Under the pieces are notes generated by a model that had not been told where the DNA came from, ran no database searches, and saw nothing but the letters and a program-made list of their open reading frames with translations. From the NCBI GenBank assembly GCA_037442885.1, contig JBBIPK010000006.1, positions 4,548-68,547 on the forward strand: DNA of 64,000 nt, written 5' to 3'. The translations under genes and the position numbers were made by a program. How positions within the stretch are numbered: the stretch's first letter is position 1; every line of letters starts with the position of its first letter. This document shows, one piece after another, positions 1-20,314 of the stretch. Origin of the DNA: Acidobacteriota bacterium (GTDB lineage Bacteria > Acidobacteriota > Terriglobia > Acidiferrales > 2-02-FULL-67-57).

Positions 1-936
1 TCCTATGACGTGAGCCGCGACGGCAAGACCATCGTCGTCACGATGAGCGACCCGCACACGCCGGTGGAGGTATATCGCCTGGCGCCCGGCAGCCCGACGG
101 CTGAACGGTTGACCTCCATCAACGCCGACTACGGCAAAGGCAAGCTCGGGCAGACGGAACTCATCGTCTACAAAGCGCACGACGGCATGGAGGTCGAAGG
201 GCTGCTGGTCAAGCCGGTGGGCTTTGAGGCGGGCAAGCGCTATCCGCTGCTCGTCATCGTGCACGGCGGGCCCTCGGGTGTGTTCGACATGAGCTTCACT
301 CCGCGCCGCGGCGTCTATCCCGTGCAGACGTTTGCCGAACAAGGGTATCTGGTCTGGCTGCCGAACCCGCGCGGCTCGGGCGGTTTCGGCTACAAATACC
401 GCCACGCCAACTACCGCGACTGGGGCTACGGCGACTACCGCGACATCATGGGCGGCGTCGACCTGCTCATCGCGCGCGGCCTGGCCGACCCCGAGCGCCT
501 GGGCGTGATGGGGTGGAGCTACGGCGGCTACATGACCTCCTGGATTGTTACCCAGACCGACCGCTTCAAGGCGGCCTCGGTCGGCGCCGGCGTCACCAAC
601 ACCTTCAGCATGTTCGGCACCACCGACATCCCCGAGTTCATGGAGGCGTACTTCGGCGGGCGGCCCTGGGAGGACTCGGAGAACTACCTGCGGCACGCCG
701 CCGTGAACTACGTGGAGAACGCCAAGACTCCCACGCTCATCCAGCACGGACAGGAAGATCGCCGCGTGCCGCTTTCGCAGGGCGAGGAGTTCTATCTGGC
801 CTTGAAGAAGGTGGGCGTGCAGGCCGAGATGGTGGTCTACCCGCGGCAACCCCACGGCATCCAGGAGCCGAAGCTGGTCGAGGATGCGATGCGGCGGAAC
901 CTCGAGTGGTTCAACAAGTGGCTGCTGGGGCAGTAG
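1..936 (+). CDS. S9-family serine peptidase (prolyl oligopeptidase / acylaminoacyl-peptidase type), C-terminal catalytic domain; 5' end outside window
   Basis: Frame is open from nt 1. GWSYGG nucleophile elbow, VHGGP, and a C-terminal acid/His region (QHGQEDRRVP, PRQPHG). Same frame as listed ORF 10..936. Confidence 0.85.
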   Translation, partial: SYDVSRDGKTIVVTMSDPHTPVEVYRLAPGSPTAERLTSINADYGKGKLGQTELIVYKAHDGMEVEGLLVKPVGFEAGKRYPLLVIVHGGPSGVFDMSFTPRRGVYPVQTFAEQGYLVWLPNPRGSGGFGYKYRHANYRDWGYGDYRDIMGGVDLLIARGLADPERLGVMGWSYGGYMTSWIVTQTDRFKAASVGAGVTNTFSMFGTTDIPEFMEAYFGGRPWEDSENYLRHAAVNYVENAKTPTLIQHGQEDRRVPLSQGEEFYLALKKVGVQAEMVVYPRQPHGIQEPKLVEDAMRRNLEWFNKWLLGQ

Positions 937-982
937 AAGAAGAAACAGAATCCTGAAACGGGAAACGAGAAAAGGCAGGGCG

Positions 983-2647
983 ATGGGTGCGCTGTCGCGA
1001 CGCAAGTTCATGCACGGCCTCACCGGGCTCGCGGGCGTGGCTTTCCTGCCCGCGCGGCGGACGGAACCTGAAACGGTTCTCTACAACGCAAACATTCTGA
1101 CTGTGGATGCGGGTCAGCCACGCGCCCAGGCGGCAGCGATTGCCGACGGGCGCTTCCTGGCCGTGGGCACGAACGACGACGTCCGGCCGCTGGCCACCCG
1201 CCGCACGCGGCAGCTCAACCTGGAAGGCAAGACGGTCGTGCCGGGATTCATTGACGCCCATTGCCATCCGGCCATCTCGGGCCGCCTCCATCTGCGCTGG
1301 GTGGACTGCGACCTGCGCTCGATCGCTGCGATTCAGGCAGCCTTGCGGGAGCGCGCGGCACAGACGCCGCCGGGCGAGTGGGTGCTGGGATTCAAATACG
1401 ACGACACCAAGACCGCTGAAGGACGGCCCCTCACGCGCGCCGACCTGGATGCAGCCTGCCCGCATCATCCGGTGTTCGTGAACCACCGCGGGGGGCACAC
1501 GGCCTACGTCAACTCGCTCGCCTTCGAGCGTGCGGGCGTGACGGAGCAGACGCCCGACCCGGCCGGCGGCCAGTTCGACCGCGAGCCCGCGACCGGGCGC
1601 TTGCAGGGTCGCATCCGCGAGCGGGCTACAGAACCCTTCTACAGCGTGATGCCCTCGACCTACTCGCCGGAGGACTACCGCGCAGGCATCAAGCTGATTG
1701 GCCGGATGATGACCCGCGCCGGCGTCACCTCGGTCCACGATGCCTACGGCTCGCCCGAAGATTTGCGCGCTTATCAGGAAGCCTATGAAGCGGGCGAGCT
1801 CTCGCTGCGCGTGTACTGCCTGATCGGGCATGCGCAGCTCGACCGGATGCTGGCCGCCGGCGTGCGCACGGGGCTGGGGAACGAATGGGTGCGGGTGGGG
1901 GCGGTGAAGCTGACCTGCGACGGCTCGATTTCGGAGCGCACGGCGCGACTCTCGCAGCCCTACGTCGGACGGCCGAATGACTACGGCATCCTGGTGATGA
2001 CGGAAGAGGAGCTCTATGCCCACTGCCGCCCGGCGCACGCGGCGGGCTGGCAACTCGGCGTCCACGCCAACGGCGACGCCGCCATTGACATCACCTTGCG
2101 GGTGTTTGAGCGGTTGCAACGCGAGCGGCCGCGGCGCGACCCGCGCTTCCGGCTGGAGCATTGCACCGTCGTCAACGACGCACTCATCCAGCGCATCCGC
2201 GCCCTGGGCGCCATCCCGAATCCCTTCTCCACCTATGTGTACTACCACGGGGAAAAGATGGCCGAGTACGGCGCCGAGCGGCTGGACTGGATGTTTGCGG
2301 TGCGCAGCTTTCTCGACGCCGGCATTCGCGTGACGTACACGTCAGATTATTTTGCCGGACCGTTTGAGCCGATGATGGCGTTGCAGTCGATGGTGACGCG
2401 CACCGATAGCCGCGGGCAGGTCTGGGGGGCGCGCCAGCGGGTGAGAGTGGAAGAGGCGCTGCGCGTCAGCACGGTGAACGGGGCGTATGCCTCCTACGAG
2501 GAACATCTGAAAGGCTCCATCGAACCCGGGAAGCTGGCTGATCTGGTGGTGCTGGGTCGCGATCCTCTGCGCGAGAATCCGTCCTCTCTGATTCAGATTC
2601 CCGTCGAGCGGACGATGGTAGGCGGCCGCTGGGTCTTCGAAGCATAA
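983..2647 (+). CDS. Metal-dependent amidohydrolase (YtcJ-like), probably exported
   Basis: FIDAHCHP HxH metal motif, HANGD, C-terminal LADLVVL. Tat-like N-terminus SRRKFMHGLTGLAGVAF. Start set at ATG 983 because the upstream part of ORF 884.. overlaps the previous gene. Confidence 0.8.
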   Translation: MGALSRRKFMHGLTGLAGVAFLPARRTEPETVLYNANILTVDAGQPRAQAAAIADGRFLAVGTNDDVRPLATRRTRQLNLEGKTVVPGFIDAHCHPAISGRLHLRWVDCDLRSIAAIQAALRERAAQTPPGEWVLGFKYDDTKTAEGRPLTRADLDAACPHHPVFVNHRGGHTAYVNSLAFERAGVTEQTPDPAGGQFDREPATGRLQGRIRERATEPFYSVMPSTYSPEDYRAGIKLIGRMMTRAGVTSVHDAYGSPEDLRAYQEAYEAGELSLRVYCLIGHAQLDRMLAAGVRTGLGNEWVRVGAVKLTCDGSISERTARLSQPYVGRPNDYGILVMTEEELYAHCRPAHAAGWQLGVHANGDAAIDITLRVFERLQRERPRRDPRFRLEHCTVVNDALIQRIRALGAIPNPFSTYVYYHGEKMAEYGAERLDWMFAVRSFLDAGIRVTYTSDYFAGPFEPMMALQSMVTRTDSRGQVWGARQRVRVEEALRVSTVNGAYASYEEHLKGSIEPGKLADLVVLGRDPLRENPSSLIQIPVERTMVGGRWVFEA

Positions 2648-2676
2648 TCTGATCTGACAGGCCGGAACGGTGCCCC

Positions 2677-3726
2677 ATGGAAGTAGTGGGGACTCTGACC
2701 CTGGCTTTCCTCTTCCTCGCAGTTGCGGGATGGGTGTGGCAGGCGGTGGAGAGCCGGAGGGATGTGCGGCGGAATCCGCCGCCCGGGCAGATGCTGGACG
2801 TGGAGGGTCGCCGGCTGCATCTGCGCAGCCTGGGCCAGGGTTCTCCCGTCGTGGTGCTGGAAGCGGGATTGGGAGGCTCATCGGTCGGCTGGTGTCGGGT
2901 GCAACCGGAAGTGGCGAAATTCACCCGCGTCGTCAGCTACGACCGCGCCGGGATGGGATGGAGTGAGCCCGCCTCGAACGGGCGCAGCGGCGCCGCGCTG
3001 GTTGAAGAGCTACGGATGCTGCTTCGAAAGGCTGGCATTCCGCCTCCCTACGTGCTGGTGGGGCATTCGTTCGGGGCATACGTCGTGGAGTTGTTTGCCG
3101 CCAGCTCTCCGAACGAAGTCGCCGGACTGGTGCTGGTGGATCCGCTGCCCGCGAGCGAGTGGTATCCGCTGACAGACCGACAGAAGGCGCGGCTGGCCAA
3201 AGGGGTGCGGCTGGCCGGCTATGCGGCCGCGCTGGCGCGGTTCGGCGTGGCGCGACTGTTCCTGGCGCTGGTGATGGGGCCCCGCTGGGCGACGCGCCTG
3301 TTCATGCTGGTGGTGGGCGTGTGCACGCTGGCGGCGGCACGAATCAATCTGCGGGCGGTGGGCGGCGGGTTGCGCGGGGCGGAGCGGATGCGGGCGGGGT
3401 TGGAGAAGCTGCCGGCGGAGGCCGTGGCACAGTTGCGAGCGCTGTGGTCACGGCCAACATACTTTCAGGCCTGGGCGCAGGAGTTGGAAAACCTGCCGGA
3501 GAGTGCGGCGCAAGTGGCAACAAGAAAGATTCCCAGGGAAATCCCGCTGACGGTGATGTCAGCGGGCAGCTCGTCGCCTGGACGGCTACGGGAGCACGAG
3601 CGTCTGGCCGGGCTTTCTGCCCGTGGCCGTCACCTGATGGTTCTGGGCAGCGGTCACCTGATTCAGTTGAACGCGCCGGCGATCGTGGTCGAGGCCATTC
3701 GGAACCTTATAATTGGTGAGGAATGA
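2677..3726 (+). CDS. Alpha/beta-fold hydrolase
   Basis: Hydrophobic N-terminus, GHSFG nucleophile elbow, C-terminal GSGHL histidine motif. Confidence 0.8.
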   Translation: MEVVGTLTLAFLFLAVAGWVWQAVESRRDVRRNPPPGQMLDVEGRRLHLRSLGQGSPVVVLEAGLGGSSVGWCRVQPEVAKFTRVVSYDRAGMGWSEPASNGRSGAALVEELRMLLRKAGIPPPYVLVGHSFGAYVVELFAASSPNEVAGLVLVDPLPASEWYPLTDRQKARLAKGVRLAGYAAALARFGVARLFLALVMGPRWATRLFMLVVGVCTLAAARINLRAVGGGLRGAERMRAGLEKLPAEAVAQLRALWSRPTYFQAWAQELENLPESAAQVATRKIPREIPLTVMSAGSSSPGRLREHERLAGLSARGRHLMVLGSGHLIQLNAPAIVVEAIRNLIIGEE

Positions 3727-3742
3727 CAGGGGCCGAGAACTG

Positions 3743-4321
3743 CTAGCGGGGTTTTTCGCCCTCTTCTTTTTCCTTCTGCTTGCGCCGTTCTTCTTCCTCC
3801 CACTGCTGCAACTCTTCCTCGGTGTAGTCGAAGGCCGGATCGCGGCGGGCAAACATCTGGCCACTGCCGGCCGAGTCAACGCGGGCAGCAGCGGCGCGAG
3901 GCGTGGCCGCCGGCCCCTGCCTACCGAGGAGCGGCTCACGGATGAGGCCGGCAGCGAGCAGCAGGTCGCTGACCTGCTCGAGAAAGTTGTGCATGTGGAT
4001 GGGCTTGGCGGCGTAGGGAAGCTTGAGCGCCTCGAGGCGCTGGCGGACGAAAAGGTCGGCGTCGGGGGGAACGAGGAAGAGCACGCGCAGGGGAGCCGGG
4101 CCCTGATCCAGCTCTTTCAGCAGGTCGAAGAAGGAGCCGGTCAGAGGGGTGAGGTTGACGTTGGTGACCAGCAGGTGCCAGCCGCCCAGCCGCAGGCGGT
4201 CGAGGCCTTCCTGGGGCTGGGAAACCTGCTCGATCTGCCAGCCCTCGCTGCCCAACACGGAGGCGAGGGCAGCCCGGCCGGCCGGGTCGCCGTCAATGAT
4301 GAGGACGCGAACCGGTTCCAT
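3743..4321 (-). CDS. Receiver (REC)-like domain protein with non-canonical phospho-acceptor position and a charged C-terminal tail
   Basis: N-terminal VLIIDGD acidic pocket and a conserved K-P (AAKPI). The position aligned to the acceptor Asp reads LLVTNVNL (Asn). Tail is EEELQQWEEEERRKQKEKEEGEKPR. Confidence 0.65.
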   Translation of the reverse strand: MEPVRVLIIDGDPAGRAALASVLGSEGWQIEQVSQPQEGLDRLRLGGWHLLVTNVNLTPLTGSFFDLLKELDQGPAPLRVLFLVPPDADLFVRQRLEALKLPYAAKPIHMHNFLEQVSDLLLAAGLIREPLLGRQGPAATPRAAAARVDSAGSGQMFARRDPAFDYTEEELQQWEEEERRKQKEKEEGEKPR

Positions 4322-4427
4322 CCTAGAACCCTGAGTCGTGCTCAGTCTAACACGAAGGGCTCCAGAAGTGCCTCCTCATGCTCGCCGCCACGAGCTGCGG
4401 GCGTGACCCCCACTTCCGCCCCTCACG

Positions 4428-4456
4428 TTGACAGTGCCGAGCGGCATCCCTATAAT
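4428..4456 (+). promoter_or_regulatory. Consensus sigma70-type promoter for rplU-rpmA
   Basis: TTGACA (4428-4433), 17 nt spacer, TATAAT (4451-4456), 30 nt upstream of the rplU start. Confidence 0.6.
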
Positions 4457-4486
4457 CAGTGGCTTACGAACAGCCGAGGAAAGGCA

Positions 4487-4801
4487 GTGTACGCAGTCAT
4501 CCGAAGCGGAAACAGGCAATACCGGGTTGAACCGGGCAGTATTGTTCGAGTGGAGTCGCTTCCGGGGAAGGTGGGCGCGAAGGTCAGCTTCAAGGAAGTG
4601 CTTGCCGTGAAGGACGAGTCGGGCCTGCAAGTCGGTGCCCCCACACTGGCAAAGGCCAAAGTGACGGGCACGATTGTCGAGCAAAGCCGCCACCCGAAGA
4701 TTCGGGTGATGAAGTACAAGAAGACGAAGCAGTACAAGATTGTGCGCGGGCACCGCCAAGCCTACACGGCAGTACAGGTGAACGAGATTTCCGCCGAGTG
4801 A
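4487..4801 (+). CDS. rplU: 50S ribosomal protein L21
   Basis: VYAVIRSGNRQYRVEPGS... KIRVMKYKKTKQYKIVRGHRQ is a typical L21. GTG start at 4487; the long upstream part of ORF 3713..4801 is antisense to the receiver gene and not credible. Confidence 0.9.
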   Translation: MYAVIRSGNRQYRVEPGSIVRVESLPGKVGAKVSFKEVLAVKDESGLQVGAPTLAKAKVTGTIVEQSRHPKIRVMKYKKTKQYKIVRGHRQAYTAVQVNEISAE

Positions 4802-4813
4802 GGCACTGAGAAC

Positions 4814-5131
4814 ATGGCACACAAGAAGGGACAGGGCAGCAGTACCAACGGTCGCGATTCGGGCGCGAAGCGGCTGGGGGTGAAGCGCTTTGCCGGACAG
4901 TGGGTGCATGCCGGCTCGATCTTGATTCGGCAGCGCGGCACGCCCATCAAACCCGGAGCCAATGTGGGGCGGGGCCGCGACGATACCCTGTTTGCCCTCA
5001 CGAACGGCACCGTCGAGTTTACCGACAAGGGCGGCCACGGCCGCTACGTCCATGTGCGACCCGCCTCCGCGCCAAACCCCGCGGCGGTGACCGCCCCCGA
5101 ACCCAGCGAAGTCGCAGCCACTGCTGATTAA
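4814..5131 (+). CDS. rpmA: 50S ribosomal protein L27
   Basis: [29 protein letters not shown]... is the canonical L27 N-terminus. Confidence 0.95.
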
Positions 5132-5182
5132 CCTCTGCGCTTTTTTCCAGCCCTCGCTTTCGCTATCCTCATTCCCATCTGA

Positions 5183-6857
<1,675 letters not shown>

Positions 6858-6861
<4 letters not shown>

Positions 6862-7241
6862 ACAAGAACGACCTCCGGCAGGCGCTCGAGCTGGCTGTCC
6901 GCGCGGTGCAGGACAAGAAGGCCGCCGACATTGTCTTGCTCGACCTGCGAACCGCAGCTTCCTTTACCGACTACTTCCTGCTCTGTTCGGGCGCCTCCCG
7001 TCGCCAGGTGCAGGCGATTGCGGATGCGCTGGAAGAGCAGCTCGGGCGGATCGGTGTGCCCCCGCTGCACGTGGAAGGGTATGAATCGGCTGAGTGGGTG
7101 CTGCTCGACTACCTCGACTTCGTCGTCCATATCTTCAGCGAACGCGCCCGCGCCTACTACGATCTGGAGCGGCTCTGGCGCAGCGCGCAGCGCCTGCCGA
7201 TTCCTGCCGACGAGGAACCGCGGCGAGCCCAGCGCTCCTGA
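6858..7241 (+). CDS. rsfS: Ribosome silencing factor RsfS
   Basis: KKAADIVLLDLRTAASFTDYFLLCSGASRRQVQAIAD...WVLLDYLDFVVHIF. ATGA overlap with nadD. Confidence 0.9.
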
Positions 7242-7255
7242 TCACTTCGCTCCGT

Positions 7256-7324
7256 CCTGCGGGAGGGCACGGCTTTAGCCGTGCCGAAAAAGCTTCAAAA
7301 ACACCAGGCTTTAGCCACTGAGGT
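7256..7324. repeat. Dispersed two-hairpin repeat element, copy A
   Basis: TGCGGGAGGGCACGGCTTTAGCCGTGCCGAA, spacer, GGCTTTAGCCACTGAGGT. A second copy with the same architecture lies at 38011-38081. Confidence 0.7.
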
Positions 7325-7444
7325 CGCGTGGCTGCCTCGTCTTCGACCGTTGGGCACAGTCATGCAATGCGCTCCAGAGGCGTTCGGGACAATGCTGATG
7401 AAAAATCAGTGTGAATCTGTGTGCATCCGTGGTTTCATTCGGCT

Positions 7445-7861
7445 GTGAAGATTCGGCTGGTCTTTCTCGGCAAGACCCGCGACCCGCGCCTGCGCGCGCT
7501 CATCGAGGAGTACCGGAAGCGCATCCGCCGCTTCACGCCGATTGAAATCCTCGAGCCGCGCGCGGCTGAACCGGAGCGGCTGGCACAAGATGGCCTGCTC
7601 GTCCTGCTCGATCCCGCAGGCAAGGAGCTGGCTTCGGAGGAGTTGGCGCGCTGGCTCAATCGCCAGCAGGCCTCCGGCCAGCGCACGTTGACGTTCGTGC
7701 TGGGTGAGGCGGAAGGGTTCTCGCAACCGGCGCGGCGGTCGGCCCACCTGTTGCTTTCGCTCTCGAAGCTCACGTTCCCGCACGAGCTGGCACGCCTGGT
7801 GCTCGTCGAGCAACTCTACCGCGCCTTCGCGAGCTTGCACGGCCACCCCTACCCCAAGTAG
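7445..7861 (+). CDS. rlmH: 23S rRNA (pseudouridine1915-N3)-methyltransferase RlmH (SPOUT)
   Basis: VKIRLVFLGKTRDP..., C-terminal GEAEGF...LSLSKLTFPHELARLVLVEQLYRA...GHPY. Start at GTG 7445 preferred over ATG 7421. Confidence 0.8.
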   Translation: MKIRLVFLGKTRDPRLRALIEEYRKRIRRFTPIEILEPRAAEPERLAQDGLLVLLDPAGKELASEELARWLNRQQASGQRTLTFVLGEAEGFSQPARRSAHLLLSLSKLTFPHELARLVLVEQLYRAFASLHGHPYPK

Positions 7862-12548: not shown

Positions 12549-13364
12549 ATGAGAATCGTGCTCGCCCTCTTGCTGCTGCTCGTGGCCATACCCGGGTTCG
12601 CCCAAGAGGCGAAGACACCACCGAACAAGGCGCAGGAACTGGTCGAGCAGGCCGTGGCCGCGCTGGGCGGCGAGGCGTACTTGAACGTCACGGGCTACAT
12701 CCGCACGGGCAGGATCTACAGCTTCAGCCGCGGGGAGTTGGCGAGCCCAGGCACGGTGTTCACCGAATACGCCAAGTATCCCGACAAGTCGCGGGTCGAG
12801 TATTACAAGAATCGCAGCATCATCCAGGTCAATAACGGCGATGAAGGCTGGGAGCTGGATACCCAGGGAGTGCGCGAGCAGACGCCGGAATCGATTCGCG
12901 ACTTCAAAGAGAGTGTGAAGCGCGATCTTGATTTTCTCCTCCGCGCTCGCCGCACCGAGCCCGGGATGCAGTTCTACTATCTGGGCTCACAGTTCTTGGA
13001 CAACCGACGGGTGGAAGTGGTGGAGATGGTGGACGCGGAGAACGAAAGCTATGTGCTCTACCTGGACGCGGAGACGCACCTGCCGCTGCGGTTGCGCTAT
13101 CGGGAGCAGGACGAGCTGACGCGGGAGATGGTGGAGGTAGTGGAGTATTACGGCATCTATATCGACTTTGGCGGCGTGCGCTCGCCGCGCCAGATTACGC
13201 GGGAACGGGCCCGACTGCGCGTGTTTGAAGCCACCGAGCTGAAAGTGGACTTCAAGAGCCCGATCGCCGACGAGTTGTTCACGCGCGCGTCGCTGGAAGC
13301 GCGCTGGCAGGAAATCGGCAAGAAACAGAAAAAGAAGAAAAAGAAGGAAGAGGAAGAGCCCTAG
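12549..13364 (+). CDS. Exported hypothetical protein (possibly LolA-like fold), Lys/Glu-rich C-terminal tail
   Basis: Signal peptide MRIVLALLLLLVAIPGFAQE. No catalytic motif recognised. Tail is KKQKKKKKKEEEEP. Confidence 0.5.
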   Translation: MRIVLALLLLLVAIPGFAQEAKTPPNKAQELVEQAVAALGGEAYLNVTGYIRTGRIYSFSRGELASPGTVFTEYAKYPDKSRVEYYKNRSIIQVNNGDEGWELDTQGVREQTPESIRDFKESVKRDLDFLLRARRTEPGMQFYYLGSQFLDNRRVEVVEMVDAENESYVLYLDAETHLPLRLRYREQDELTREMVEVVEYYGIYIDFGGVRSPRQITRERARLRVFEATELKVDFKSPIADELFTRASLEARWQEIGKKQKKKKKKEEEEP

Positions 13365-13452: not shown

Positions 13453-13461
13453 TGCTATAAT
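13453..13461 (+). promoter_or_regulatory. Extended -10 promoter element (TGCTATAAT) upstream of hslV
   Basis: TGCTATAAT lies 20 nt upstream of the hslV GTG. The same 9-mer recurs upstream of hslU and tal. Confidence 0.5.
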
Positions 13462-13481: not shown

Positions 13482-14027
13482 GTGAAGAAACCAGCTCAAC
13501 GCCCGCACGGCACCACCGTGCTCTGCGTGCGGCGCGACGCCAAGGTCGTGTTTGCGGGCGACGGCCAGGTCAGCATCGGCGACACCATCTTCAAACAAGG
13601 GGCGAAGAAAATTCGCCGGCTCTACAACGACAAGGTGCTGGCGGGATTTGCGGGCGCGACCGCCGACGCGCTCTCCCTGTTTGCGCGCTTTGAGGCCAAA
13701 TTGCAGGAGCATGCCGGCAACCTGCCGCGGGCGGCGGTGGAGCTGGCCAAGGAGTGGCGCACGGACCGCGCTCTGCGGCATCTGGACGCGTTGCTGCTGG
13801 TGGCCGACGCCAAGAGCACCTTCCTGCTCTCCGGCAACGGCGACATCATCGAACCCGACGACGGCCTGGCCGCCATCGGTTCGGGCGGCCCCTACGCGCT
13901 GGCGGCCGCGCGGGCCTTGACCAAGCACACGAAACTCTCCGCGCGCGAGGTTGCGCAGGAGGCGATGCAGGTCGCAGCCGGCATCTGCGTCTTCACCAAC
14001 ACCAACTTCGTCTTCGAGGAACTCTGA
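13482..14027 (+). CDS. hslV: ATP-dependent protease subunit HslV
   Basis: [11 protein letters not shown] (N-terminal Thr nucleophile after a short propeptide), [20 protein letters not shown]. Confidence 0.95.
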
Positions 14028-14030
14028 GCC

Positions 14031-14411
14031 GTGCTGAGCGCGGCAGGCGTTCAACCCGCGCGGCGCGGGCGGGGAGCGGGCCTGCTCCAGGTCGTGCTCG
14101 CCCTGGTGGTGGCTCTCGCGCTGGTCTGGCTGGCGCTGAAGATGTTCGAACGGCAGCGCTCGGTTCCCACTGGCCGCGGCGTGCCGCCGGCGCGGGCAGT
14201 CCTGGACAGCGTCGAGTTGCAGATCGGCGGGATTGAATCACCCACAGATGCGCTCACCGTCCAGGCGGCCTTGCAGCGAACTCCGGGGGTGGCGGGCGTG
14301 CAGGTTGACCCGTCGTCCGGCCGCGCGCGCATCACCTACGACCCCAACCGCACCCATCCTGACCAGCTCATCGCCGTCGTCCGCCAGGCCGGCTTTCAGG
14401 CCAGCCGGTAG
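14031..14411 (+). CDS. Membrane-anchored HMA-like (ferredoxin-fold) domain protein lacking the CxxC metal site
   Basis: One TM helix (LLQVVLALVVALALVWLAL) followed by an HMA-like domain. GMxCxxC is replaced by GIESPTD. C-terminus QLIAVVRQAGFQASR is paralogous to the MerT-HMA protein C-terminus. Confidence 0.6.
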   Translation: MLSAAGVQPARRGRGAGLLQVVLALVVALALVWLALKMFERQRSVPTGRGVPPARAVLDSVELQIGGIESPTDALTVQAALQRTPGVAGVQVDPSSGRARITYDPNRTHPDQLIAVVRQAGFQASR

Positions 14412-14466
14412 GGTCGCAGCTCCCCAAGAAAGATTTGCTTGCAACCGTTGGCCGTTCCATGCATCC

Positions 14467-14485
14467 TATCCCTGAGGAGGGGATA
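14467..14485. promoter_or_regulatory. Candidate CsoR-type operator palindrome
   Basis: TATCCC-N7-GGGATA overlaps the RBS and ATG of the CsoR-like gene. Confidence 0.3.
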
Positions 14486-14793
14486 TGCCGAAGGCGTTGC
14501 CTGTCGTCAAGGACATCTATCTCGATGCCGAGGTCGAGCAGGAGCTGCAGAACCGTCTGAGCCGGATCGAGGGGCACGTGCGGGGGGTGAAGCGGATGTT
14601 GGCCGAGCATGCCTCCTGTGAAGACCTATTGCTGCAGCTCACCGCCATCCGCTCGGCCCTGAATCAGGTCGCCGCTCGGCTGCTCGAGAATCATATGGAT
14701 ACCTGCGTGGCCGACGCCGTACGAGCTGGTGGGGGCCAGAAGGCACTGGCTCACCTCAAAGGCGCCTTAGCTCAGGTATTGAAGAACCAATAA
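14485..14793 (+). CDS. CsoR/RcnR/FrmR-family metal-sensing transcriptional repressor (Cu(I)-type C-H-C signature)
   Basis: Cys45, His70 and Cys74 show the same 25/4 spacing as the characterised CsoR ligands (..HASCEDLL.., ..ENHMDTC..). All-helical, about 100 aa. Confidence 0.85.
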   Translation: MPKALPVVKDIYLDAEVEQELQNRLSRIEGHVRGVKRMLAEHASCEDLLLQLTAIRSALNQVAARLLENHMDTCVADAVRAGGGQKALAHLKGALAQVLKNQ

Positions 14794-14813
14794 GCAGGAA
14801 AGGAAGAAACTCA

Positions 14814-15410
14814 ATGAATGAGAAATCTGTTGTTGTCGCCTCTGGTATTACCGCCTTTCTCGCTTCTCTCTGCTGCCTCGGACCGTTGCTGTTAGGAGGG
14901 ATCGGCTTAGGGGTGGCGCTTTCGGCCGCGTTTGAATCACTGCGGCCCTACTTCCTGGGTCTAACCGCCGTGCTGCTGCCTCTGGGGTTCTATCTGGCCT
15001 ACCGCAAGCCGAAGGCGGTCGCATGCGCCGACCAAAGCTGTGCGCCTGCGGCTAGCCGTAGGCAGAGGTTCGTCCGGCCTTTCCTCTGGATCGCAGCCTT
15101 GGCGGTGCTCGCCTTGGCACTTTTCCCCGTCTATGGCGCCCGGCTGGTGCCTTCAGTGAAGCACTCGGGTCAATCCCCTGCCCCGATGAAGGAGGCGAAT
15201 TCAGCTCACCTGATCCTCAAGGTCAGCGGGATGAGTTGCGAAGCCTGCGCTGTCTCTGTGCGCACGGCTCTGCTGAAATTTTCCGGTGTGGCGGAAGCGC
15301 GTGTGGACGTCGGTGGTGCAGCTGCCTACGTGCGCTATGATCCAGACCAGGTCAAGCCCGAGCAACTCATCGCAGCCGTCAACCGCACTGGGTTCAAGGC
15401 CTCCCGTTGA
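14814..15410 (+). CDS. merT: MerT-like metal transporter fused to a C-terminal HMA (MerP-like) domain
   Basis: TM1 LASLCCLGPLLL matches the MerT CC motif, and a second Cys pair follows (ACADQSCA). C-terminal HMA domain has GMSCEAC. Confidence 0.8.
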   Translation: MNEKSVVVASGITAFLASLCCLGPLLLGGIGLGVALSAAFESLRPYFLGLTAVLLPLGFYLAYRKPKAVACADQSCAPAASRRQRFVRPFLWIAALAVLALALFPVYGARLVPSVKHSGQSPAPMKEANSAHLILKVSGMSCEACAVSVRTALLKFSGVAEARVDVGGAAAYVRYDPDQVKPEQLIAAVNRTGFKASR

Positions 15411-15427
15411 GCCCAAGCGATGGAAGG

Positions 15428-15991
15428 ATGACTCTGCCTCGCAGCGTGGAGACGGTGGAAGGCCGGGTGCTGGCGATGGCTCGTGCCTGGCTAACGGCGA
15501 ACCAACCTGCTGAGATGTGTCCCGTCTCGGCCACGACTGGCCACAAGGTGAGGCAGGTCACGCTTGGCAATCATCTGCGACCGGAGCACTGGCGGTGGGC
15601 CTGGCAGGAAGAATTCTATTTCTGCTCGGCGCCCGACTGTCCAATCGTCTATTACAACAATGCGCAAGCGATCTATTTTACCCAGGAGGAAATCCGCACG
15701 CGCGTGGGCGTCAAAATCGGCCCGCCTCCTGTTCCTGTCTGCTATTGCATGAATGTGTGTGAGGCCCAAATCTTGGACGAAATTCAGGTCAAGCGCTGCT
15801 GTGACTCGCTCGAGGACATCAAGCAATATACCAAGGCCCGGACGGGCAAGCTTTGCCACGTCACCAACCCTGCCGGCAAATGCTGCGGCAAGCACCTGAT
15901 GGCAGTGGTGGAGCGCGCGCTGGCGGCCGTGCACGATCCGGCCATGGCCCGACAGGCGCGCGAAGCCTGCTGCCAGATACCGGAAGAATAA
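15428..15991 (+). CDS. Cys-rich putative metallochaperone / (2Fe-2S)-binding protein (CopZ N-terminal-domain-like)
   Basis: Many conserved-looking Cys: CPV.., FCSAPDCP, CYCMNVC, RCC, CHVTNPAGKCCGKH. Start uncertain (TTG 15407 or ATG 15428). Confidence 0.55.
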   Translation: MTLPRSVETVEGRVLAMARAWLTANQPAEMCPVSATTGHKVRQVTLGNHLRPEHWRWAWQEEFYFCSAPDCPIVYYNNAQAIYFTQEEIRTRVGVKIGPPPVPVCYCMNVCEAQILDEIQVKRCCDSLEDIKQYTKARTGKLCHVTNPAGKCCGKHLMAVVERALAAVHDPAMARQAREACCQIPEE

Positions 15992-16005
15992 AGGAGGGGC
16001 TTGCG

Positions 16006-16242
16006 ATGGCCAAGACAGTCCGTGTCTATACGCAGCCGGGGTGACTCTTCTGCGGGCAGACGAAAGAGTTTCTTTCGCAGAAGAAGATTCCCTTCGAGGA
16101 GCGAGACATCTCCAAAGACCCGGCGGCGCTGGCAGAACTGGAGAAGCTTGGCTATATGACGACACCGGTGAGCGTCATTGACGGTGAGGTCGTGGTCGGC
16201 TTCGACATCGCGAAGTTGACTCGCCTGCTGGGCCAAGGCTAG
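16006..16242 (+). CDS. Glutaredoxin-like (NrdH/YruB-type) protein with in-frame UGA at the CxxC position; probable selenoprotein (U-L-F-C)
   Basis: AAGGAGGGG RBS lies 6 nt before ATG 16006. Reading through TGA 16042-16044 gives a 78-codon frame to TAG 16240 with Grx hallmarks (VRVYT, TTPV cis-Pro, DGEVVVGFD). A SECIS-like hairpin lies directly 3' of the TGA. Confidence 0.7.
16046..16084 (+). other. SECIS-like stem-loop (candidate selenocysteine insertion element)
   Basis: 16046-16052 pairs with 16078-16084 (7 bp) and 16061-16067 pairs with 16071-16077 (7 bp). There is an 8-nt 5' bulge and an apical GUU loop. The structure starts 2 nt after the UGA. Confidence 0.55.
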
Positions 16243-16300: not shown

Positions 16301-16309
16301 TGCTATAAT
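16301..16309 (+). promoter_or_regulatory. Extended -10 promoter element (TGCTATAAT) upstream of hslU
   Basis: TGCTATAAT lies 46 nt upstream of the hslU ATG. A GGTTG-UCUUCGGG-CAACC hairpin sits in the leader. Confidence 0.5.
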
Positions 16310-16355: not shown

Positions 16356-17759
16356 ATGGCGATTTACCTTCCCGGAAAAGTCGGCGAGCCGGCGCCGGAA
16401 ACCGAAGCGCCCGCGGCAGGACTCGACGAACTGACGCCGCGGCAGATTGTCTCGGCGCTCGACAAGTACATCATCGGGCAGCAGCAGGCCAAGCGCGCCG
16501 TCGCCATCGCCCTGCGGAACCGGATTCGTCGGCAGAAACTCGAGCCGGAGATGGCCGAAGAAGTTCTGCCGAAGAATATTCTGATGATCGGGCCGACGGG
16601 GGTCGGAAAGACGGAGATTGCGCGGCGACTGGCACGGCTGGCGAACGCGCCCTTCCTGAAGGTGGAGGCTTCGAAATACACCGAGGTGGGCTACGTGGGC
16701 CGCGACGTCGAGTCCATGATCCGCGACCTGGTGGACGTCGCCATCGAGATGGTGCGGGAGGAAAAGCTGGAAGAAGTGGCCGAGCGCGCCGAGATGAACG
16801 CGGAAGAGAGGATGCTTGACCTGCTCCTGCCGCCACCCACCGCCACGGGCCCCGAAGACACACGGCAGCGGGAGAGCTTCCAGCAGACGCGGGAGAAAAT
16901 CCGCGCCCAACTCCGCGAAGGGCGTTTGGACGAGAAGTACGTTGAGTTGGAGGTGCGGGAGCGGAGCTTTCCGGCGTTTGAGATCGTCTCCTCGAGCGGC
17001 GTGGAAGAGATGGACGTGAACATCAAGGACGTGCTGCCGGGTTTGTTCGGCCAGATGAAGAAGAAGCGGCGGATGAAGGTCTCGGAAGCCTGGGAGTACC
17101 TAGTGGAGGAGGAAGAGAACCGACTGATTGACATGGAGCAGGTGACGCGGACAGCCGTCGGCCGGGTGGAGCAATCGGGCATCATCTTCATTGACGAGAT
17201 CGACAAGATTGCGGGCCGCGAATCGGGCCACGGGCCGGACGTGAGCCGCGAAGGCGTGCAGCGGGACATCCTGCCGATCGTGGAAGGCACGACCGTGAAC
17301 ACGCGTCACGGGATGGTGCGGACCGACCACATCCTGTTCATCGCCGCCGGGGCGTTCCACGTCACCAAGCCCTCCGACCTGATTCCCGAGTTGCAGGGGC
17401 GGTTTCCTATTCGGGTGGAGCTGCATTCGCTGACCGCGGAGGATTTTGTGCGCATTCTCCGGGAGCCGAAGAATGCGCTCATCCGGCAATACACGGCGCT
17501 GCTCGACACCGAAGGCATCCACCTGACCTTCACCGATGACGCCGCCGAAGAGATTGCGCGCTATGCGGCGCGCGTGAATGAAGGGATGGAAAACATCGGG
17601 GCGCGAAGGCTCTTCACCATCATGGAGAAGCTGCTCGATGAGATTTCCTTTGAGGCGCCAGACCTGAGGAAGAAACAGGTGAAGATTGACGCCGCCTACG
17701 TGCACAAGATGTTGGCCGACATCGTCAAGGACCAAGATCTGAGCCGCTACATCCTCTAG
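16356..17759 (+). CDS. hslU: ATP-dependent protease ATPase subunit HslU
   Basis: [17 protein letters not shown], Walker [16 protein letters not shown], Walker [11 protein letters not shown]-terminal [11 protein letters not shown]. Confidence 0.95.
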
Positions 17760-18840: not shown

Positions 18841-19611
18841 ATGGGAAAGTACTGCCGCTTTGAGGTGGAGGGCGTAACACGCTACGGCGAAGTACGGGGC
18901 GAGGATGTGAGTGCACTGAGCGCGGCCCCCTGGGCAGGTGGCGAACCGATGAGCCAGCGGTATCCGCTCAGCCAGGTGCGGCTGCAGGCACCGTGCGAGC
19001 CGTCGAAGATTGTTTGTCTGGGGCGGAACTATCGCGAGCACGCAGCGGAATTGGGACATAAGGTGCCACGCGAGCCACTGATTTTCCTGAAGGCACCCTC
19101 GGCGATCATCGGACCGGAGGAGGCAATCGTCTATCCGCCGCAGTCGCAGCGGGTGGATTACGAAGGCGAGCTGGCGGCGGTGATCGGCCGCCGCTGTCAC
19201 CGGCTCAACGCCGCGGACAATCCGCTGGACTACGTTTTCGGCTTCACCTGCCTGAATGACGTGACGGCGCGGGACTTGCAACAGGCCGACGTGCAGTTCA
19301 CGCGCGCGAAGAGCTTCGACACCTTCTGTCCGCTCGGGCCGGTGATCGCTACCGGGCTTGATCCAGGCAAGCTCGTAGTCGAGACCTATGTGAACGGGGA
19401 GCGGCGGCAGCGGGCGAGCGTGCGGGAGATGATTTTTCCGCTCGATGCTATAATACGCTTCATTGCTTCCGTGATGACGCTCGAGCCGGGCGACGTGATT
19501 GCAACGGGCACACCGGCAGGCGTGGGACCCCTGCAGGTGGGCGACGTCGTAGAAGTGAGCGTCGAGGGCATCGGGCGGTTGCGCAACCACGTGGTAGCGG
19601 CGACAACGTAA
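18841..19611 (+). CDS. Fumarylacetoacetate hydrolase (FAH) family protein
   Basis: [62 protein letters not shown]. Confidence 0.85.
19446..19454 (+). promoter_or_regulatory. Possible internal promoter (TGCTATAAT) for tal inside the FAH gene
   Basis: Third exact copy of TGCTATAAT, 174 nt upstream of the tal ATG. No convincing -35 element. Confidence 0.35.
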
Positions 19612-19627
19612 CGGGGAGGAGGGAGTG

Positions 19628-20314
19628 ATGAAGTTTTTCCTCGACACCGGCAATGCAGCGGAGGTGCGGCAAGCGGCGAGCCTGGGTGTGCTCGACGGCG
19701 TCACCACCAATCCCACGCTGCTCGCGAAAGAGGGCAAGCCCTTCCGCGAAGCGCTGCTCGAGATGTGCCAGCTGGTGGACATCGTGAACGGCGAGGTGGT
19801 GGCGACGGATGCCGAGGGGATGATCGCCGAGGGGCGCGAGCTGGCGTCGCTCCACCCGAACATCGTGGTCAAGATTCCGATGACGCCCGAAGGGTTCAAA
19901 GCCATCCGGGTGCTGCGGCGCGAAGGGATTCGGATCAACGTGACGCTGGTGTTCAGCCCGGCGCAGGCGTTGCTGGTGGCGAAAGCCGGCGCGTATTTCG
20001 TCAGTCCGTTCCTGGGGCGGCTGGATGACATCGGCAGCGACGGGATGCGGGTGCTGCGCGACATCATCGACGTATATCGTCCCTACAAGTTCGAGACGCA
20101 GGTGCTGGCTGCCAGCCTGCGGCACCCGATGCACGTGGTGGAGGCGGCCAAGCTCGGCGCTGACATCGCCACCATGCCCTATAAAGTCTTCGAGCAGCTC
20201 TTCAAGCATCCGCTGACCGACCGCGGACTGGACGCCTTCCTTAAGGATTGGGAGAAGGCGCGCGCGGTGCTGGGCGACATCCTCCCGGCGGAAGTCAAGA
20301 CAGGCAGGAAGTGA
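19628..20314 (+). CDS. tal: Transaldolase (short type 3B) / fructose-6-phosphate aldolase family
   Basis: [55 protein letters not shown]. Confidence 0.9.

Follow-up and report, generated by a model that had tools for sequence, protein, structure and literature searches.

We describe a 2328-bp gap between the genes hslV and hslU in a 64-kb stretch of DNA from an Acidobacteriota bacterium (the ‘window’, to which all coordinates refer). The gap is occupied by five genes on the same strand. In our view these genes probably go back to an old insertion, specific to the lineage, of a self-contained operon for soft metals, csoR-merTP-copZN-grxU, joined by a locally evolved gene, ORF1, whose product has no Cys residues; Hg(II) or an ion of similar softness is the likeliest metal. 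All the parts come from known families; their combination and their location are new. An earlier note on this DNA had listed five same-strand open reading frames (ORFs) separating hslV from hslU, among them a Cys-less membrane HMA-like protein, a MerT-HMA fusion, a Cys-rich protein resembling the CopZ N-terminal domain and a UGA-containing glutaredoxin; Pfam and NCBIfam back each of these family calls.

All features of the cassette are located on the plus strand. It is flanked by hslV, encoding the protease subunit (13482–14027; NF003964, 275.8 bits versus a cutoff of 137), and hslU, encoding the AAA+ ATPase subunit (16356–17759; TIGR00390, 658.3 bits versus a cutoff of 362). Inside the gap, in order, are ORF1 (14031–14411), a membrane anchor with a Cys-less HMA-like domain (Pfam HMA, 34.3 bits versus 24.8); csoR (14485–14793), a repressor of the CsoR/RcnR family (PF02583, 87.4 bits versus a cutoff of 22.8); merTP (14814–15410), a MerT-HMA fusion (MerT, 43 bits versus 32.9; HMA, 50.1 bits); copZN, or ORF4 (15428–15991), a Cys-rich zf_CopZ protein (PF18423, 57 bits versus a cutoff of 28.4); and grxU (16006–16242), a glutaredoxin-like gene with an in-frame UGA at 16042–16044 (Glutaredoxin, 59.9 bits with U read as C). 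The start of grxU was corrected to the ATG at 16006. The reading frame of copZN is open from a TTG at 15407; given that its homologues are 187 aa long, we place its start probably at the ATG at 15428. The best sub-threshold NCBIfam matches of the cassette (UxxU_metal_bind, MerT_CopZ_Se, CopZ_Nterm_CC/CU and Uxx_star) form a set of (seleno)protein metal families.

To define the wider gene order, HslU was scanned against one genome per GTDB species, which produced 80 loci from Acidobacteriota (Terriglobales-like) with HslU identity of 71–76% in full-length alignments. In all 80 relatives hslV is located directly upstream of hslU (spacer of 3–631 bp, median near 89 bp), and none of the 80 hslVU loci encodes any of the five cassette proteins. 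Because hslV adjoins hslU without a cassette protein in every one of these relatives, the genes in the window are an insertion relative to the wider order, and the proposal that a normally contiguous hslVU operon had been split by inserted genes is upheld by the synteny comparison. Outside the cassette the window is core chromosome (L21, Obg, RelA/SpoT, SecDF, Tgt, RpoD, DnaG, MutS2, LptD and SurA).

Relatives carrying the insert were found among metagenome contigs via homologues of ORF4 and ORF1. An eight-gene version, hslV-ORF1-DUF302-205aa-patatin-csoR-merTP-copZN-grxU-hslU, is present in loci L081–L083 (HslU 98.7% identical), and a two-gene version, hslV-ORF1-grxU-hslU, in L176 and L178–L180. 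The contig of L177 (HslV 85% identical) breaks off early in csoR, after hslV, ORF1 and the csoR operator. The synonymous distance (dS) is 0.03–0.2 between the sisters L081 and L176, 0.3–0.45 for the window as their outgroup and 0.6–1.0 for L177, the most distant, which corresponds to the tree ((L081, L176), window), L177. Since the same site is occupied in the related lineages L081–L083, L176–L180 and L177, the insert is not recent: it predates the split of the L081, L176, L177 and window lineages and belongs at the base of a small Terriglobales subclade, not to a single strain. The host group is a small group of soil Acidobacteria. By parsimony, the genes from csoR to grxU were at the hslVU site in the common ancestor; L176 would then have lost csoR-merTP-copZN secondarily, and the DUF302-205aa-patatin block would have been either gained by L081 or lost from the window lineage.

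Between the window and L081 the ratio dN/dS (nonsynonymous to synonymous distance) is 0.11–0.32 for all five cassette genes (ORF1 0.32, csoR 0.11, copZN 0.24 and grxU 0.22 for the whole ORF), with 0.075 for hslV and 0.017 for hslU; because of these values, all five ORFs are real genes under purifying selection. The dS values of csoR (1.16) and merTP (0.88; window 14485–15410 versus L081 9066–9984) are two to three times those of the flanking genes (0.3–0.45), and the two genes adjoin the 2.4-kb DUF302-205aa-patatin indel, which suggests replacement of the csoR-merTP allele by recombination and not simple vertical descent.

The codon composition points to a foreign source for part of the insert. 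The earlier note had remarked on the unusual codons of the csoR-to-merT stretch, and the G+C content at third codon positions (GC3) agrees: against a baseline of 0.816 ± 0.043 in the 48 other genes of the window, GC3 is 0.757 for csoR, 0.678 for merTP, 0.729 for copZN and 0.759 for grxU. Concatenated, csoR to grxU have GC3 of 0.721, a value as low as which is found in none of 1687 coding windows of the same length. The outlier is merTP, with the lowest GC3 of the whole window (z = −3.2) and a synonymous codon log-likelihood of z = −4.1. For ORF1 GC3 is 0.843. These values fit a foreign origin of csoR to grxU, only partly ameliorated, and a local origin of ORF1.

The low GC3 of csoR to grxU, together with the lack of the cassette in the 80 relatives, is what one would see if a recent, strain-specific horizontal island split hslVU in this genome alone. 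Such an island is nevertheless very improbable. It is largely refuted by L081, L176 and L177, where the same insert occupies the same site in lineages at dS of 0.3–1.0, and ORF1 has the composition of the host and is confined to the clade. A repeat search detected no direct or inverted repeats bracketing the insert; no integrase, transposase or tRNA/att site is present at it, the neighbours being housekeeping genes, and ARAGORN detected no tRNA genes in the 64 kb. The cassette has no match to plasmids at the DNA level, and protein matches from plasmids are only 25–34% identical. Of the acquisition put forward in the earlier note, the insertion itself stands, as the cassette is missing from the 80 relatives; recent acquisition by this genome does not, as L081–L083, L176–L180 and L177 share variants of it.

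ORF1 begins 3 nt past the hslV stop codon and encodes one hydrophobic helix and an HMA domain with no Cys, GIESPTDA standing where GMxCxxC would be expected. Only nine homologues were found in 5.8 billion proteins. Each has an identity of 70% or more and no Cys, with GM-E-S/T-x-x-D-A in place of GMxCxxC, and the gene starts a few bases after hslV wherever the context is available. Between the HMA part of ORF1 and that of MerTP next to it the identity is 40.6%, and both share the end GF(Q/K)ASR. We read ORF1 as a probable clade-born paralogue of the periplasmic HMA domain of the module, one that would no longer be able to bind soft metals via thiolates. The possibility that ORF1 was imported as cargo of the insert was considered and rejected, given its host-like GC3 (0.84) and its nine-member family confined to the clade.

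The insertion appears to have been followed by a change in transcription of hslU. The sequence TGCTATAAT, similar to an extended −10 element, is located at 13453–13461 before hslV and at 16301–16309, 47 nt upstream of hslU; the pattern TGNTATAAT has three sites in 64 kb (at 13453, 16301 and 19446) versus 0.05 expected. The site before hslV is of the ancestral hslV promoter type, TGnTATAAT being present upstream of hslV in 59 of 76 relatives. In the hslV-hslU spacer, TGnTAnAAT is found in 0 of 80 relatives, and the TGCTATAAT element before hslU is present in L081, L176 and L178. Because this element is confined to insert-carrying lineages, the pattern supports the acquisition by hslU of a putative promoter of its own after the insertion. 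We considered that the element before hslU is a duplicate of the hslV promoter; similarity of the two past TGCTATAATC(C/G)GC is weak. A scan for sigma-70 promoters with two hexamers gave no promoter in 12.5–18 kb. The element before hslU, already pointed out in the earlier note, proved specific to lineages with the insert. The uncoupling of hslU from hslV with which it had been associated was not supported: no terminator-like site was found on the plus strand between hslV and hslU, so transcription from the hslV and csoR promoters could still read through into hslU.

The part of the insert downstream of ORF1 is a self-contained module. Upstream of csoR a TTGCAa-17/18-CATCCT arrangement followed by a C/G-tract inverted repeat is kept in the window, L081, L089, L091 and L177. 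In the window the putative csoR promoter, suggested by its conservation in the window, L081 and L091, consists of TTGCAA (14439–14444), a 17-nt spacer and CATCCT (14462–14467); the putative CsoR operator, TATCCCTGAGGAGGGGATA, is a C/G-tract pseudopalindrome at 14467–14485 and overlaps both the Shine-Dalgarno sequence and the start codon of csoR. The half-sites TATCCC-N-GGGGATA at this position recur in five independent loci, and in L177 the operator is a perfect palindrome, ATCCTATCCCCCCAGGGGGGATAGGAT. This conservation favours 14467–14485 as the candidate CsoR site, as had been proposed. CsoR operators are known to be G-tract pseudopalindromes, for example ATATACCCCTNAGGGGTATAT in Streptomyces (PMC3902906). 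The module also recurs away from hslVU, as csoR-merTP-CMD-HMA-118aa-grxU-copZN in L089/L090 and as csoR-merTP-copZN in L091/L092 and L102; it is autonomous because the promoter-like element and operator are kept in five loci and because of this recurrence.

The regulator has Cys45, His70 and Cys74, kept in all CsoR orthologues aligned, and an RLSR motif on helix 1; it has no N-terminal His or Cys. The ligand spacing is that of C36/H61/C65 in CsoR of Mycobacterium tuberculosis. In that protein the second-shell residue next to the first Cys is Tyr35; Ser44 takes its place before Cys45 here. The NCBIfam RicR score of 67.4 bits (cutoff 175) is below the equivalog level, and FrmR matches also appear. 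The copper operons of csoR-copZ-copA type (M. tuberculosis, B. subtilis and Streptomyces) share with the cassette a PF02583 repressor with x-C-H-C and an RLXR motif as well as an autoregulatory G-tract pseudopalindromic operator. The cassette differs from them in having neither a CopA ATPase nor an HMA-type CopZ chaperone, in its cargo (an importer-type MerT protein), in the change of the second-shell Tyr to Ser and in its half-sites, TATCCCC/GGGGATA and not TACCCC/GGGGTA.

MerTP combines a MerT-like three-helix transporter with a C-terminal HMA domain and has a CC pair in helix 1 (LCCLGP), a C-x4-C loop between helices 2 and 3 (CADQSC) and GMSCEAC in the HMA domain. In these features, the three-helix core, the helix-1 CC pair, the cytoplasmic Cys pair and the C-terminal GMxCxxC HMA domain, it is like the product of mer operons with a MerTP fusion; likewise, a metal-responsive repressor gene heads the operon, and homologous modules elsewhere hold MerA, MerB and MerE. 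Unlike in those operons, the regulator is of the CsoR and not the MerR (or ArsR) family, there is no merA, and the CopZ-N-terminal-like Fe-S protein and the selenocysteine (Sec) glutaredoxin are additions that are not canonical mer genes. Indeed neither a MerA homologue nor a P-type ATPase DKTGT motif was found in the cassette or elsewhere in the 64-kb window, in agreement with the earlier statement that no merA or copA partner is present. A 322-aa MerTP in L084 (8433–9401) has a ‘DF family (seleno)protein’ domain at its N terminus (95.5 bits versus a cutoff of 70); its gene follows one for a MerR-family regulator and precedes a copZN homologue (69–71% identical).

The copZN product is a stand-alone protein with a CopZ-N-terminal-like Zn/[2Fe-2S] domain and nine invariant Cys including two CC pairs; in the family alignment its C-terminal tail, CCQIPE, is largely conserved. 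Residues 30–158 align to PDB 2HU9, the N-terminal Zn/[2Fe-2S] domain of Archaeoglobus fulgidus CopZ, with E = 1.1e-23 and the Cys ligand pattern kept; the match to Pfam Fer2_BFD (20.7 bits) is under the cutoff of 26. Unlike A. fulgidus CopZ, copZN has no C-terminal HMA domain and has the CCQIPE tail. It shares the aligned domain and its Cys ligands with the (seleno)proteins of the NCBIfam families CopZ_Nterm_CC and CopZ_Nterm_CU as well, yet scores under the NCBIfam cutoff and is of the Cys and not the Sec form.

The active site of grxU is U-L-F-C, with the UGA at 16042–16044 replacing the first Cys of CxxC. The UGA is found at the same codon in four lineages (the window, L081, L176–L180 and the 68%-identical L089/L090), and coding conservation continues downstream of it. 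Among the best 120 database homologues (P0043–P0162), seven are full-length with Cys at this position, and ∼104 gene calls begin at Met-Phe-Cys right after it; the latter are likely truncated annotations of selenoproteins, the usual footprint of unrecognized selenoproteins. In eight full-length entries the Sec position is occupied by W, R or L. A stem-loop at 16046–16084, starting 2 nt past the UGA (−23.5 kcal/mol), is a candidate bacterial selenocysteine insertion sequence (SECIS); it is kept in the three lineages whose sequences were compared (only three), with one compensatory change from a C-G to a G-C pair. A search of Rfam at gathering threshold gave no match in the 64 kb, hence no catalogued SECIS. 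The window holds no selA, selB, selD or tRNA-Sec gene, its large ORFs being housekeeping genes. Comparative evidence of this kind indicates that the UGA is a genuine Sec codon of the known UxxC family. UxxC glutaredoxins are a known selenoprotein family, as are MerT and CopZ-like Fe-S selenoproteins (PMC9312934), and grxU corresponds to the UxxC glutaredoxins in fold, in Sec for the first Cys of CxxC, in the existence of Cys homologues and, for the candidate SECIS, in a stem-loop after the UGA. Nothing essential sets grxU apart from them; it is embedded in a metal module and has stayed beside hslU even where the other module genes were lost.

The metal was approached through gene neighbourhoods: metagenome contigs were scanned with the ORF4 family alignment, and neighbours were typed in 80 loci. 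In L129 and L152 the order is csoR-merTP-MerA-AbrB-copZN, with MerA at 600 bits on TIGR02053 (cutoff 454) and a C-H-C regulator; these (L129, 4151–8621; L152, 3185–8546) are mer operons headed by a CsoR-type instead of a MerR-type regulator. The series merA-merB-…-merE-…-AhpC-…-copZN was found in L085–L088, L112–L114, L116, L118, L119 (without merB) and L124, and copZN-HMA-merA in L109, L172 and L174; a MerR-family regulator adjoins the copZN homologue in L084 and L108–L111. The Stanieria cyanosphaera plasmid pSTA7437.03 resembles the cassette in bringing together genes for a regulator that responds to metal, an importer of Mer type, a thioredoxin-family protein and a protein like the CopZ N-terminal domain, with merA missing; unlike the cassette, it has a MerR-like regulator and MerF as transporter, and protein identity is only ∼34%. 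The three genes that separate ORF1 from csoR in L081 (6697–9014) have counterparts close to distant modules of mer type: L129 has patatin and L152 has DUF302 upstream of csoR, and in L114–L118 the 205-aa and patatin-like genes are located downstream.

Because a P-type ATPase is hardly ever part of homologous modules, which repeatedly include MerA, MerB, MerE or regulators of the MerR family, we favour a soft-metal function of Hg(II) type over copper, as judged by gene association. The earlier note had read the C-H-C signature of CsoR as one for Cu(I); the signature turns out not to discriminate, since C-H-C regulators of the same family head operons with bona fide MerA.

A copper cassette is a possible, if rather doubtful, alternative. 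In such a cassette CsoR would sense Cu(I), MerTP would move periplasmic Cu(I) inward, copZN would reduce Cu(II) and chaperone Cu(I) to a CopA encoded elsewhere, and the glutaredoxin would repair copper-damaged thiols. It draws on the C45-H70-C74 spacing, the RLSR motif, the G-tract operator and the match of ORF4 to 2HU9; the N-terminal domain of A. fulgidus CopZ reportedly reduces Cu(II). Several of the same facts, and others, weigh against the mercury-type reading. The regulator carries the canonical Cu(I)-type x-C-H-C, and the solved structures closest to it are those of Ni and Cu sensors (InrS 5FMN for Ni; CsoR 4M1P, 2HH7 and 4ADZ). The closest modules (L081, L089, L091 and L102, 64–83% identity) all lack merA, as a copper function would have it, and those containing merA are only 34–53% identical. 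In L093–L095 (∼800–7600) a copZN homologue is divergent from an extracytoplasmic function (ECF) sigma/anti-sigma pair, a DUF3179 gene and a bufferin-type operon, BufA1-MbnB-HvfC-DoxX; bufferin operons are linked to copper, and this is probably a second, copper-related context of the copZN family. Import of Hg(II) without a reductase would be expected to sensitize the cell. MerTP (110.6 bits on NF033556 MerTP_fusion) is under the equivalog cutoff of 180, and copZN (87.7 bits on CopZ_Nterm_CC) is under the cutoff of 100. Finally, the stem-loop after the grxU UGA is no stronger than in shuffled sequence (z = −1.1).

What tips the balance from copper toward a metal such as Hg(II) is the company that the genes keep. 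A P-type ATPase motif is present in only 2 of the 80 loci of ORF4 relatives, kilobases from the gene, whereas partners of the MerA, MerB, MerE, MerR-like and MerT/F kinds recur in several independent architectures, and in L129 and L152 the operon behind the C-H-C regulator includes a true MerA. In addition, the second-shell Tyr of M. tuberculosis CsoR is Ser in the cassette, and a copper-induced importer makes little physiological sense.

The CsoR family also includes members that sense something other than metals; TTHA1953, one of the family, is a regulator of sulfur oxidation (PMC10318464). Along with the FrmR matches in the NCBIfam search, the selenoprotein glutaredoxin and the Cys-rich Fe-S protein, this would suit a thiol/persulfide or general redox-stress operon, in which a CstR-like sensor would respond to reactive sulfur species and the glutaredoxin and the Fe-S protein would act as redox relays. 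We give this little credence: the His of C-H-C is kept in all orthologues, the MerT-like transporter has all four transport Cys and a GMxCxxC HMA domain, and related loci have mer genes as neighbours.

For the soft-metal module we propose a working scheme whose steps follow what is known of the families. Apo-CsoR would bind the C/G-tract palindrome overlapping its own ribosome-binding site, until a thiophilic metal bound at Cys45-His70-Cys74 frees it from DNA. The periplasmic HMA domain of MerTP (GMSCEAC) would capture the metal and MerTP would pass it via the helix-1 CC pair to the cytoplasmic C-x4-C loop, from which the cytosolic copZN protein, with its Zn/[2Fe-2S] centre and conserved CC pairs, would accept it. 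The UxxC glutaredoxin may keep thiols reduced or resolve metal-thiolate adducts. The module would then be a merA-less relative of CsoR-headed mer operons, and the metal could end up with a reductase encoded at another locus, with the Fe-S protein or in sequestered form. As to the locus, the module may have been inserted at the base of the small Terriglobales subclade, after which hslU would have gained its extended −10 promoter, with gene gain and loss following later.

A bolder proposal goes further, and we regard it as improbable: that the module is a MerA-independent detoxification system in which copZN and the Sec-glutaredoxin bind or reduce Hg(II) or a similar metal received from MerTP; that its fixed place within hslVU is an adaptation, in which transcription induced by metal at the csoR promoter would continue into hslU, no terminator preceding that gene, and so couple the response to proteotoxicity of thiophilic metals to the HslVU protease; and that ORF1, a Cys-less periplasmic HMA protein co-translated with hslV, is a new accessory of this coupling.

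At this locus one of the most conserved two-gene operons of bacteria has been broken up, a rare event and one that can be dated. Its two-, five- and eight-gene variants, set beside uninterrupted relatives, show how an operon absorbs foreign genes: the downstream gene receives a new putative promoter inside the operon, a paralogue arises locally, and genes are gained and lost afterwards. The survey also delineates a recurrent four-part module found in several phyla, with or without MerA, in which a metal sensor is joined by an importer of the MerT/F type, an Fe-S protein similar to the CopZ N-terminal domain and a (seleno)protein with a thioredoxin fold. As its CsoR-headed versions show, a C-H-C fingerprint has to be tested before it is taken to mean copper. 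Should the merA-less form detoxify mercury, the mer paradigm would be extended; otherwise, this is an ordinary accessory metal operon. In the literature searched we found no experimental characterization of merA-less clusters with a regulator, a Mer transporter, a CopZ-N-terminal-like protein and a thioredoxin-fold protein; for a CsoR-regulated mer operon or an interrupted hslVU the same searches returned generic papers only and no description. The selenoprotein preprint of Haft mentions MerT-family selenoproteins, and this module is absent from it.

Several observations concern the surroundings of the insert. In most of the Terriglobales relatives (L001–L080) the motif CTG(C/T)TATAATCAAGAATTGCGCTCATG is strongly conserved ∼15–70 nt upstream of hslV, a spacing that implies a very short hslV leader, or none; several Acidobacteriaceae have, further upstream of hslV, an inverted repeat resembling CTTAGTCAC..ACTCAAC. 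The third TGCTATAAT of the window (19446–19454) lies inside the 3′ end of a gene of the fumarylacetoacetate-hydrolase family (18841–19611), ∼170 nt upstream of the next gene (19625–20314; transaldolase-like in the syntenic L081), and is probably an internal promoter. Upstream of hslV the window encodes a 271-aa protein (12549–13364) with a weak MucB/RseB-like match and a Lys/Glu run, KKQKKKKKKEEEEP, at its C-terminal end. Its homologues are located directly upstream of hslV in some relatives (e.g. L076) and ∼2 kb off in others; in L081 and L177–L179 a gene of the PEMT/ICMT family is situated between the homologue and hslV.

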